A stretch of 64,000 bases of DNA, taken from the NCBI GenBank assembly GCA_035556715.1, contig DATMER010000050.1, forward strand, positions 87,978 to 151,977. Reading direction: 5' to 3'. This stretch comes from Thermoanaerobaculia bacterium. GTDB lineage: Bacteria; Acidobacteriota; Thermoanaerobaculia; Multivoradales; UBA5704. The notes under the pieces are model-generated. The model saw only the letters and a program-made list of their open reading frames with translations, was not told the DNA's origin and did no database searches. Both the position numbers and the translations under genes were made by a program. Below are positions 40,701 through 44,376 of this stretch, one piece after another (the stretch's first letter is position 1; each line of letters starts with the position of its first letter).

Positions 40701-43700
40701 GGAGGCCCACCGTCTCGCGCGCGAGGAGGCGGCGCGGCCGTTCGACCTCGCCGCCGGGCCGCTGCTGCGCGCCGTGCTGCTGGATCTGGCGCCGGAGCGA
40801 AGCCTGCTGCTCCTCAACCTCCACCACATCGTCACGGACGGCTGGTCCATGGGCGTGCTGGTGCGGGAGGTCAACGCGCTCTATGCGCAGGACAGCCTGC
40901 CCGCGCTGCCCGTCCAGTACGGCGACTTCGCGGTCTGGCAGCGGCACTGGCTCTCCGGCGAGGTGCTGGAGAGCCAGATTGCCTGGTGGCGCGAGCGGCT
41001 GCGGGGCGCGCCCGCGGCCCTGGAGCTGCCGGCCGACCATGCCCGTCCGCCGGTGCAGACCCAGCGCGGCGCCGAGCACCGCTTCGGCCTGGATGATCTG
41101 GACGGGGGCCTGTCCCGCCGGATCGTCGAGGTTGCCCGCGAGGAAGGGGTGACCCCGTTCATGGTGCTGGCCGGCGGGCTCTTCGCCCTGCTCGCCCGGC
41201 TCACGGGCCAGACCGACCTGGCCATCGGCTCGCCCATCGCGAACCGGAACCGTATCGAGACCGAGGGACTGATCGGGTTCTTCGTGAACACCCTGGTGGT
41301 GCGGGCGGACCTGTCGCGCGCGGAGAGCTTCCGCGACCTGCTGCGGCAGGTGCGGGAGGCCAGCCTGGGGGCGTACGCGCACCAGGACGTGCCGTTCGAG
41401 AAGCTCGTGGACGAGCTGCACCCGGACCGCGACCTCTCGCGCTCGCCGCTGTTCCAGGTGGCGCTGGCCCTCCAGAACGCGCCCCTGCCCGAGGCGGATT
41501 TGGGCGAGGTCCGCCTCCTTCCCGAGGAGGTCGGCACGGGCGTGGCCAAGTTCGACCTCTCTTTCGTCTTCGTCGAGAACGGGGGCCGGCTCGCGGGCCT
41601 GCTCCAGTACGCCGCCGACCTTTTCGAGCCCGCGACCGCGGCGCGCTACGCGAGGCACCTCGCGGTCCTGCTGGAGGATCTGGCGGCCCGCCCGCGCGCC
41701 CGGCTGGCCGAGGCGTCGCTGCTCACGCCGGAGGAGCAGCACCAGGCCGTCCATGAATGGAACGACACGGCCGCGCCCTTCGCGCAGGACCTCACGGTCC
41801 ACCGCCTGTTCGAGGACCGCGCCGAGCGCCAGCCGGACGCTCTGGCCGCGGTGTGGGAGGGAGAGTCGCTGACCTACGCCGCCCTCGACGAACGGGCCAA
41901 CCGGCTGGCAGGGCTGCTGCGCGAGCGCGGTGTCCGTCCTTGCGTGTCCGTGGCGGTCTGGATGGAACGGTCGCTCGACATGATCGCCGCCGTGCTGGGC
42001 ATCCTCAAGGCCGGCGGGCACTACCTGCCCCTGGACGCCTCCTGGCCGGCGGAGCGGGCCGAGGGCATCCTGGCCGCGTCCCGGACGCCTGTCGTGGTCA
42101 CCCGCTCGGCGCTGCTCCCGGCCATCCAGGAGATCTGGTGGCGGCTGCCCCTGGCCGATGCCGTATGCCTGGACGTGGACACGCCCCGGCCCCCTGCCGA
42201 GCCCCTGGACCCCGAAGCCGTCCGCGCCCTCTGGGACTTCGTCGCCGAGCGCGCCACCGACCGCGTCACGGCCGCGGGCTTCGTCAGCAGCTACACGGGC
42301 CGGCCTTTCGCCGAGGCCGAGGTGGACGAGTACCGGGACCGTGTGCTCTCCCTGGCCGAGCCCTGGCTGCGGCCGGACGCCCGGGTGCTGGAGATCGGCT
42401 GCGGCGCGGGCCTGCTCTTCTGGGAGATGGCGCCGCGGGTGGCCCGCGCCGTGGGCCTCGATCCCTCGGAGGCCACCCAGCAGCGCAACCGCGCCTGGGC
42501 CGCGGAGCATGGGATCGGGAACGTGGATCTGATCACCGGATTCGCCCACGAGCTGCCCGAGGGGCCGTTCGACCTGATCGTGATGGCGAGCACGGTACAG
42601 TTCTTCCCCGGCCCCGTCTATCTCGAGCGGGTGGTGGAGCAGGCCCTGGCGCGTCTCGCGCCCGGCGGCGTCCTGCTCGTGGCCGATGTGCCGGATTCGC
42701 GGCGGCGCGAAGAGTTCCGGCGCTCCGGGGCCAGTGTCAGCGGGGGGGGCCGCGAGATGTGGATCGACGAGGACCTCTTCCGCGGCCTCGGCGAGGCCTC
42801 GGTGCTCCACCGCGAGCAGGGCTTCGACAACGAGCTGCGCTTCCGCTACGACGTGCTGCTGACCCCGGGCGGCGAGGCTCGCCGCAAGCGCGTCTGGACC
42901 GGCTGGCACGTGGATCGCCAGTCCCCCGTCCGCCTGCCCGCCACGGCCTCGCCGGACGACTTCGCCTATGTCGTCCATACCTCGGGATCGACCGGCCGGC
43001 CCAAGGGGATCGCCGTGCAGCACCGGCCAGCCGTGAACCTGATCGGCTGGGTGAACGAGACCTTCGGAGCCGGCCCGGGAGACCGGCTGCTTTTCGTGAC
43101 CTCCCTCGGGTTCGACCTGTCGGTCTATGACGTTTTCGGCACGCTGGCGGCCGGGGGCACGATCCACGTGGCGCCCGAGGAGGCGCTGCGCGACCCGGCG
43201 CGGCTGATGGCTCTGCTGCGCGACGAGCCGGTCACCATCTGGGACTCGGCGCCGGCCGCGCTCCAGCAGCTCGCGCCGCTGTTCCCGGAGAAGAGTGAGG
43301 GGCTCCGGCTGGTGCTGCTCTCGGGCGACTGGATCCCGGTGCGCCTGCCGGACCAGGTGCGGGCCGCCTTCCCCGGCGCACGGGTGATCAGTCTGGGCGG
43401 TGCCACCGAGGCCACGGTGTGGTCTAACTGGTACCCGGTCGGCGAGGTGGACCCGCGCTGGCCGAGCATTCCCTACGGCCGGCCGATCGCCAACGGCCGC
43501 TATCACGTGCTCGACGAGGGGCTGAGCCCCTGCCCGCTGGGCGTCCCGGGTGACCTCTACATCGGAGGCGGCGTGCTGAGCGCCGGCTACGTGTACCAGC
43601 CGGAGCTGACCGCGGCGCAGTTTCTCCCCGATCCGTTTGGTGGCGATAGCGCGCGGCTCTACCGCACGGGCGACCGGGCAAGGTACCTCGGGGACGGCAA

Positions 43701-44376: not shown

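Follow-up and report, generated by a model that had tools for sequence, protein, structure and literature searches.

An in-line, TioN-type interrupted adenylation domain in an acidobacterial nonribosomal peptide synthetase, with S-methyl-cysteine as its predicted product

Adenylation (A) domains of nonribosomal peptide synthetases (NRPSs) that are interrupted between core motifs a2 and a3 fall into families 3 and 4 and the rare family 7 (PMC8341866). Family 3 (A2-Ms(S)-A3, with a type IV methyltransferase (M) domain) is represented by TioN, which S-methylates Cys, and of its 64 members at NCBI 'almost all' were said to be stand-alone proteins. Family 4 (A2-Mb-A3, type V) is represented by the thalassospiramide enzyme TtbB, which carries out backbone N-methylation, and has 188 NCBI members (PMC8341866). 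MarQ, from the maremycin pathway, is a second characterised enzyme that activates Cys and S-methylates it from an a2-a3 insert; TioN and MarQ are both reported to adenylate Cys and to S-methylate (PMC11355689; PMC8949500), and inserted M domains are reported to work after the carrier (T) domain has been loaded (PMC11355689). Here we describe such an interrupted domain in module 5 of an NRPS (NRPS1) encoded in 64,000 nucleotides of a Thermoanaerobaculia bacterium of the phylum Acidobacteriota (assembly GCA_035556715.1, contig DATMER010000050.1, positions 87,978 to 151,977 of the forward strand). This whole stretch, which has a G+C content of about 70%, is called the window below, and positions are counted from its first letter.

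The feature is real and is of an already described kind (TioN/MarQ-type, family 3), not a new kind of enzyme. Module 5 is probably an in-line family-3 domain, that is, an A domain with an M domain inside it (A(M)A), installing S-methyl-Cys from L-Cys before extension by a polyketide synthase (PKS). For module 5 itself, the topology, the motifs, the homology, the identity of the specificity code and the selective constraint are observations.

Topology and constraint of the interrupted domain

The Pfam AMP-binding profile matches module 5 as two stretches, the second starting at profile position 153, and between them lie matches to Methyltransf_23, 25, 12 and 11 (E 5e-14 to 5e-10). As an independent check, a hidden Markov model (HMM) was built from six uninterrupted A domains of the same window; its positions 2-113 align with residues 5358-5469 of NRPS1 and its positions 140-492 with residues 5740-6092. 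The split at residues 5469/5740 thus defines an insert of about 270 residues (5470-5739), located between a2 and a3 (FAYVVHTSGSTGRPKG). By the same HMM, the distance from a1 to a3 is 395 residues in the module-5 A domain (A5), compared with 121-185 residues in the other A domains.

An initial annotation of this DNA had placed a methyltransferase between a2 and a3 of A5, and both the Pfam split and the in-window HMM bear this out, although its estimate of about 300 residues for the insert was too large. The domain boundaries that it had called for show AMP-binding split in two, with the methyltransferase not upstream of a1; a position upstream of a1 is excluded by the HMM split. A motif scan found all of the motifs quoted in that annotation where it had put them. 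The set of S-adenosylmethionine (SAM)-binding motifs of the insert is complete, and the reading frame of NRPS1 is unbroken through module 5 in translation. The condensation (C) domain of the module (C5) is ordinary, as had been stated: its motif is HHIVTDGWS and no motif of a cyclisation (Cy) domain is present, which rules out a Cy assignment for C5.

An AlphaFold2 model of the 777-residue A(M)A region, based on an alignment of 49 sequences, has a mean predicted local distance difference test score (pLDDT) of 89.5 and a predicted template modelling score (pTM) of 0.83. Over the insert the pLDDT is mostly 84-98 per block, and the model shows the regular strand-helix alternation of a Rossmann-type fold. 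When the model was compared with the PDB by Foldseek, its A part matched 1AMU and 4D4G with target-normalised template modelling (TM) scores of 0.74-0.78, and thus the A fold is preserved in the model. The Foldseek search of the PDB recovered no a2-a3 interrupted A domain: whole-model matches were ordinary A domains only, and no target spans the insert as well (query-normalised TM around 0.5). The nearest solved methyltransferase by sequence is the N-methylating a8-a9 domain of TioS (5WMM, E 1.4e-14).

Compared with six related copies in acidobacterial metagenome-assembled genomes (MAGs), the insert has ratios of nonsynonymous to synonymous substitution (dN/dS) of 0.14-0.32, equal to or lower than those of the flanking A domain (0.19-0.32), which indicates that the insert is under purifying selection. 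These data bear on the proposal that the inserted methyltransferase (MT5) is an inactive relic or a purely structural insert, in which case module 5 would add plain Cys. Inactivity was proposed early on for a2-a3 interrupted A domains in general (PMC8341866); the same code is found in uninterrupted A domains of Acidobacteriota NRPSs (L062-L064, L066), and a2-a3 loops elsewhere in NRPS1 tolerate non-functional in-frame repeat insertions. We regard this proposal as highly improbable, however, given the complete SAM motifs, a dN/dS no higher than in the A domain, the retention of the motifs over 57 copies (fetched loci plus the window), the confident Rossmann-type alternation in the AlphaFold2 model, and the reported activity of TioN and MarQ (PMC11355689; PMC8949500).

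Methyltransferase type, specificity pocket and predicted product

Type IV M domains are 260 +/- 25 residues long and are defined by three motifs, VLExGxGxG, Dx(V/I)x(L/I)AS(T/V/A)xQF(F/L)PxxxY(L/T) and x(E/V)LxxR(Y/F)D (PMC8341866). The MT5 insert, with its approximately 270 residues, falls inside this length range and has counterparts of all three motifs (Table 1). Its motif ii, DLIVMASTVQFFPGPVYL, deviates from the type IV consensus at a single position, where a conservative Met occupies the (L/I) site, and it has Ala in place of the SAM-contacting Asn of the N-methylating types I and V. In motif iii, NELRFRYD, two residues separate L from R, whereas types I and V have three. The acidic residue expected after strand 2 is present (GLDPS). 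With an HMM made from 59 stand-alone TioN-like inserts, MT5 scores 245 bits, and the a8-a9 methyltransferase of the same window, described below, scores 102 bits. On these motifs, the insert is best assigned to the type IV M domains and A5 to family 3 (A2-Ms(S)-A3).

Starting from a stand-alone Micromonospora homologue (P0117), a search led to CAJ34370.1 (Q333V2) of Micromonospora sp. ML1, a protein of 768 residues that is recorded as 'NRPS protein' and contains AMP-binding, methyltransferase and AMP-binding_C domains but lacks a carrier domain. From the thiocoraline-producing strain, the size and the architecture, we infer that this protein is probably TioN. The A(M)A region of the window is collinear with it along the entire length, at 47% identity across 763 residues and with 30 gap positions, and the corresponding motifs of CAJ34370.1 are ILEIGSGSG, DVILLASTVQFLPDLDYL and GELAQRYD.

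Another reading is that MT5 is a type V backbone N-methyltransferase and that module 5 yields N-methyl-Cys or another N-methylated residue. Types IV and V are described as close relatives that share the a2-a3 site (PMC8341866), family 4 includes in-line modules (PMC8341866; PMC11355689), and MT5 is homologous to N-methylating enzymes, namely 5WMM and the type I methyltransferase of the window. However, the type V motif mb-iv is Dx(V/I)(V/I)xNSV(V/I)(Q/E)xFxGx(N/G)Y(L/F), the Asn of which contacts SAM, and types V also show xxGGWx(S/N)x(Y/F) (mb-i), xY(V/Y/L)(G/A)(T/V/I)Dx(S/T/A) (mb-iii) and three residues after L in mb-vi (PMC8341866). At mb-iv the insert reads ...MASTVQFFPGPVYL, with Ala for Asn and ST for SV; the mb-i site is degenerate (AAGFVSSY, without GGW), the Tyr of mb-iii is absent (RAVGLDPS), and the spacing in NELRFRYD is two. 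Moreover, the whole A(M)A region is collinear with the probable TioN and has the same code. A type V assignment is thus unlikely. No type V (N-methylating a2-a3) sequences occur among the 84 fetched loci and the window.

The final NRPS of the window, which extends past the window edge, has a methyltransferase within its A domain according to Pfam. The initial annotation had described it as a member of the same family in the a8-a9 position, and BLASTP agrees (33% identity to MT5, E 6e-22). Its motifs are EGWNSSYTG, VVEIGCGTG, DLVVLNSVVQYFPGIDYL and NELTRFRYD; these type I motifs, and its position after a8, identify it as a type I backbone N-methyltransferase. Because the two domains are homologous, the earlier statement that homologous methyltransferases are inserted in two topologies within one cluster was correct.

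The specificity code was read from a MAFFT alignment in which a GrsA fragment served as the reference for the window A domains. The fragment gives the published DAWTIAAIC and is thereby validated; the tenth residue was assumed to be the a10 Lys (the K of GNGKLDR). The code of module 5 is DLYDLSLVW (plus the assumed a10 Lys), and the probable TioN has the identical nine residues at the same positions (FDLSVYD, IWDSAP, LLSGDW, LGGATECTVW). The consensus for Cys is D235, L236, Y/W239, N278, L/M299, L/M322, I/V330, W331 and K517 (PMC12283262), and the A5 code agrees with it at all defined positions except for Asp in place of Asn278. The motifs LSGDWIP and GGATE support the earlier placement of A5 in the Cys-type subfamily. 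A literature search for the code DLYDLSLVWK or DLYDLSLIWK found nothing, the searchable papers giving only Asn278 codes for Cys, and a search for S-methylcysteine in NRPS modules likewise found nothing.

In Acidobacteriota (L062-L064, L066), the DLYDLSLVW code also occurs in uninterrupted A domains that have an ordinary C domain upstream, whereas the closest uninterrupted actinobacterial relatives (L070-L084, from Streptomyces, Nonomuraea, Kitasatospora and Dactylosporangium) read DLFN..LVW and mostly have a Cy motif upstream. Asp278 thus tracks non-cyclising modules and Asn278 thiazoline-forming modules, so that finding a 'Cys-type' A domain next to an ordinary C domain is no puzzle. The initial annotation had singled out this combination as an oddity, but it is the usual appearance of the TioN-type group.

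Asp278 might instead mark a shift to a residue other than Cys (Ser, 2,3-diaminopropionate or another small nucleophile), the side chain of which would be O- or N-methylated. Such a shift would fit the departure from the classical Cys consensus, the reported acceptance of Ser by MarQ at a lower level (PMC8949500), and the acidobacterial pockets DLYNLAFVF, DLYDLAMVY and DLYDLALVY, which suggest a scaffold that can be diversified. On the other hand, the Asp278 code is identical to that of the probable TioN, for which L-Cys is the reported preferred substrate (PMC11355689), it is found in nearly all of the sampled stand-alone family-3 proteins, and the survey of Lundy et al. contains no O-methylating M domain at a2-a3 (PMC8341866). 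We therefore give a non-Cys substrate little credence. The initial annotation had left S-, O- and N-methylation all in play; the motifs, the collinearity with the probable TioN and the identical code point to S-methylation of Cys.

In the proposed sequence of events, the split A5 would fold as a normal A domain, activate L-Cys and load it onto the carrier domain of the module (T5), which is presumed to hold Cys during methylation. The M domain, protruding from the a2-a3 loop, would then methylate the thiol of Cys-S-T5 with SAM, and C5 would join the lipo-tetrapeptidyl chain to S-methyl-Cys. Finally, the chain would pass to the downstream ketosynthase-acyltransferase-ketoreductase-acyl carrier protein (KS-AT-KR-ACP) module, which would turn its end into a gamma-amino-beta-hydroxy unit bearing CH2SCH3 as the side chain. 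The substrate, the S-regiochemistry and the order of the steps are proposed by analogy with the biochemistry of TioN and MarQ, the order (loading, then methylation) being taken from the work on TioN and TioS in PMC11355689. For this uncharacterised acidobacterial lipopeptide-polyketide, the structural prediction is that residue 5 would be S-methyl-Cys, probably PKS-extended to a methylthio-bearing gamma-amino-beta-hydroxy unit, which would offer a handle for mass spectrometry.

Several points weigh against S-methyl-Cys formation by module 5. MT5 is 34-40% identical to actinobacterial stand-alone inserts in alignment A1, which does not include the probable TioN, and these values only modestly exceed the 33% local identity between MT5 and the N-methylating methyltransferase of the window; the separation of MT5 from type V rests on published motifs and not on a tree. 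Position 278 is Asp where classical Cys-activating domains have Asn. The name TioN for CAJ34370.1 is ours and is not given by the source. Biochemistry is known for TioN and MarQ and for no in-line member. A motif scan found no MbtH-like gene in the 64-kb window, and TioN reportedly needed an MbtH-like protein.

Distribution among relatives and surrounding sequence

A scan of one genome per species returned 80 loci, and its best match, 86% identical, comes from Acidobacteriota/Thermoanaerobaculia MAGs, which places the window in that lineage but in none of the scanned genomes; looking up the exact sequence of the PKS protein gave no match. The 49 loci from Acidobacteriota contain 56 a2-a3 inserts. 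The diagnostic Ala is present in all 56, the two-residue spacing from L to R in 51 of the 51 scorable copies, and the exact code DLYDLSLVW in 35 of the 56; at least 37 of the 56 are in-line, with a C domain upstream and a T domain downstream in the same open reading frame (ORF). With the window included, 57 of 57 a2-a3 copies have Ala, and the sole a8-a9 copy, that of the window, has Asn. Some MAGs hold several copies; SMAG_U9298 holds seven of the listed loci.

A word-indexed search gave more than 100 proteins that span the whole A(M)A region, many of them labelled Thermoanaerobaculia, the other sources being Cohnella/Paenibacillus (in-line C-A(M)-T) and actinomycetes (stand-alone, about 780 residues); nearly all combine type IV motifs with the code DLYDLSL(V/I)W. 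When 1.84 billion cluster representatives were searched exhaustively with the 270-residue insert by HMMER, 190 matched at E<=1e-30, a number that rose to 3150 at E<=1e-10. The top match is a protein of 6172 residues, 86% identical and with the insert at residues 5433-5694, which is evidently an orthologue of the whole of NRPS1, and the top 150 matches are mostly multi-modular proteins of 1000-7900 residues. Thus a2-a3 interruptions are less rare than the initial annotation supposed: a 2020 survey already listed 64 + 188 NCBI examples, and 190 representatives were found here at E<=1e-30. A literature search on biosynthetic gene clusters of Acidobacteriota found nothing specific.

The sequences suggest that the pocket of the A(M)A scaffold has been diversified among these relatives. 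Two a2-a3 interrupted A domains lie close together in some acidobacterial loci (L026, L037, L041), one reading DLYDLSLVW and the other the variant DLYNLAFVF, and further relatives read DLYDLAMVY, DLYDLALVY or DLYDLAYVF; the pocket-variant set comprises P0008, P0011, P0014, P0020, P0023, P0029, P0034 and P0035. In Thermoanaerobaculia/Holophagales-type Acidobacteriota, TioN-type A(M)A domains may have been recruited in-line, multiplied to several paralogues per genome and diversified in their pockets (DLYDLSLVW, DLWDLSLVW, DLYNLAFVF and DLYDLAMVY, among others). We see an outside chance that some in-line copies, possibly including A5, methylate a non-thiol nucleophile, or that S-methylation masks the thiol for PKS chemistry; either would be an activity undescribed for a2-a3 interrupted domains.

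Other members of the group vary in further ways. The in-line homologues of Firmicutes (Cohnella/Paenibacillus; P0043, P0047-P0051, P0053, P0054, P0056, P0060 and P0061) have Pro for the diagnostic Ala, in LLPS(T/A)xQFF, and keep the two-residue spacing and the code DLYDLSLIW, and this sub-type fits neither type IV nor type V exactly. P0058 is an A(M)-T-reductase protein with the source label 'myxalamid-type NRPS MxaA'. In an 8.4-Mb Holophagales MAG (L003, 7569-9989, next to P0022), a C-A(M)-T protein lies directly 3' of a radical SAM protein of 806 residues. The stand-alone TioN-like A(M)A P0117 (Micromonospora sp. URMC 106; L001, JBPQTP010000005.1, 4134-17274) was dropped as a proxy for TioN because its neighbourhood is not the thiocoraline cluster. 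Its neighbours are a C-A-T protein, a free C domain, a free carrier, an acyl-CoA dehydrogenase, a major facilitator superfamily transporter and a 945-residue protein of the DIT1/PvcA family (isonitrile-synthase-like), a context that suggests another use of the stand-alone enzyme.

The features of the window are listed in Table 1. The start of the PKS gene overlaps the stop of NRPS1 (ATGA), and from this gene order the PKS module is the predicted acceptor of the S-methyl-Cys-terminated chain. After the PKS gene come a free-standing C-domain protein (476 residues by Pfam analysis) and two more NRPSs. The related metagenome contig L002 has the identical gene order C-A(M)-T / KS-AT-KR-ACP / C / NRPS, and in L005 a long ORF lies downstream of the NRPS. 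The stop of the gene for the free-standing condensation-domain protein (49969-51399, ~480 residues) overlaps the start of the next NRPS, and its counterpart is in the same position in L002 (8912-10384). The 1.1-kb gap between the PKS gene and this gene contains an ORF of 76 residues at 48852-49082, ribbon-helix-helix/antitoxin-like by eye only, and, at 49506-49824, a tandem array of about 12 degenerate copies of 21 nucleotides with the consensus GGTCCGAGCCGTCCGTACCGC.

Table 1. Features of NRPS1 module 5 and of related genes and domains in the window
Feature	Positions	Strand	Details and evidence
NRPS1, 6216 aa	25726-44376	+	FAAL-T-(C-A-T)x4-C-A(M)-T (FAAL, fatty acyl-AMP ligase); ORF list, translation, Pfam
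Module-5 C domain, ordinary type	40426-41745	+	Pfam Condensation, E 1.4e-105
Module-5 C active-site motif HHIVTDGWS	40822-40848	+	Motif scan
A5 N-terminal piece, a1 (LTYAALDERANRL) and a2 (LKAGGHYLPLD)	41797-42132	+	In-window HMM positions 2-113, 110 bits
Inserted class-I SAM methyltransferase, type IV (TioN-like), ~270 aa	42133-42942	+	Pfam Methyltransf_23/25/12/11
SAM-binding motif I, VLEIGCGAG (type IV motif i)	42385-42411	+	Fits VLExGxGxG (PMC8341866)
Type IV motif ii, DLIVMASTVQFFPGPVYL	42571-42624	+	Sequence against the definition in PMC8341866
Type IV motif iii, NELRFRYD	42829-42852	+	Sequence against the definition in PMC8341866
A5 C-terminal piece, motifs a3-a10	42943-44001	+	In-window HMM positions 140-492, 365 bits
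T5 carrier domain, FFEVGGSSLL	44074-44259	+	Pfam PP-binding, E 8e-16
PKS module KS-AT-KR-ACP	44373-48824	+	Pfam
Homologous methyltransferase, a8-a9 of last NRPS	61781-62953 (boundaries approximate)	+	Pfam; BLASTP

Repeated sequences have also entered NRPS1. A GC-rich palindromic element, resembling repetitive extragenic palindromes or miniature inverted-repeat transposable elements, lies between genes at 12355-12535, with the termini GGAGCCCTCACCCCC...GGGGGTGAGGGCTCCGG, and the A domain of module 4 holds an in-frame copy of about 155 nucleotides in its a2-a3 loop (38845-39000). Shorter hairpin fragments (CCCTCTCCCGCGGAGCGGGGGAGGG...) at 27420-27465, 29470-29515 and 32576-32618, likewise in frame, occupy the a2-a3 loops of the A domains A1 and A2 as well as the linker between FAAL and T, and they encode loops rich in G, R and P. 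The repeat was found by a 9-mer search plus alignment: CCCTCTCCC has 14 occurrences, where 3.3 would be expected. Searching for the element with a strict palindrome pattern gave zero matches. These in-frame repeats mark the a2-a3 loop as an insertion-tolerant spot in the very protein that carries a methyltransferase there.

Comparison with described interrupted domains

For a precedent at a2-a3, the initial annotation had pointed to an O-methylating A domain of the kutzneride pathway, but KtzH belongs to family 2a, with a type II O-methyltransferase between a8 and a9, as classified by Lundy, Mori and Garneau-Tsodikova (PMC8341866). KtzH(A4-M-A4) resembles A5 in being an interrupted A domain with side-chain methylation, and differs in its a8-a9 site, in its DVGx(N/H)xG M domain and in activating and O-methylating Ser. 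The insert of the window lies at a2-a3 and has a canonical GxGxG in place of the (V/I)(F/I/V)DVGx(N/H)xG of family 2a, so that a KtzH-like O-methyltransferase is excluded by topology and motifs. The true a2-a3 precedents are TioN, MarQ and the N-methylating domains of thalassospiramide synthesis.

Those thalassospiramide domains, in TtbB, TtcC and TtmB, share with A5 the a2-a3 site, the in-line setting and a short M domain (~270 residues) that, like MT5, lacks the C-terminal ~120 residues of type I. However, they retain the Asn of NSV, a spacing of three residues and both GGWxSxY and xY..D, and they N-methylate the backbone of Tyr. TioS(A4-M-A4), a family 1 enzyme with a type I M domain, provides the structure closest to MT5 in sequence (5WMM) and represents the lineage found in the last NRPS of the window, but its M domain of ~390 residues is at the a8-a9 site in the small A subdomain and methylates the backbone nitrogen. 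PchE, HMWP2, BmdB and FmoA3 belong to the same A subfamily (FDLSVYD, LSGDWIP, GGATE), and BmdB, FmoA3 and PchE are among the PDB matches of A5; the PchE/HMWP2-type domains differ in having a Cy partner (DxxxxDxxS) and Asn278, in contrast to the ordinary C5 and Asp278 of the window.

MarQ, from Streptomyces sp. B9173, is alike by description, with an S-methyltransferase at a2-a3 of a Cys-activating A domain, and its sequence was not identified among our homology matches; it works in an actinomycete diketopiperazine pathway, unlike the lipopeptide assembly line considered here. The closest likeness is to TioN, with which A5 shares the a2-a3 methyltransferase, the three M-domain motifs, the nine pocket residues and a coexisting type I a8-a9 N-methyltransferase, the thiocoraline pathway likewise pairing both topologies in TioN (a2-a3) and TioS (a8-a9).

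TioN is a stand-alone A(M)A without C or T that loads its carrier in trans, whereas the window copy is part of a C-A(M)-T module within a five-module acidobacterial NRPS and feeds a PKS module. What is modestly new is that family-3 modules are mostly in-line, and expanded, in Acidobacteriota. For engineering, this provides natural evidence that a full elongation module can accommodate an a2-a3 insertion. The picture of family 3 as 'almost all stand-alone' drew on sequences from cultured organisms, and the abundance of in-line copies comes from metagenome-derived Acidobacteriota; the window copy, in-line in an NRPS of 6216 residues, departs from that tendency.

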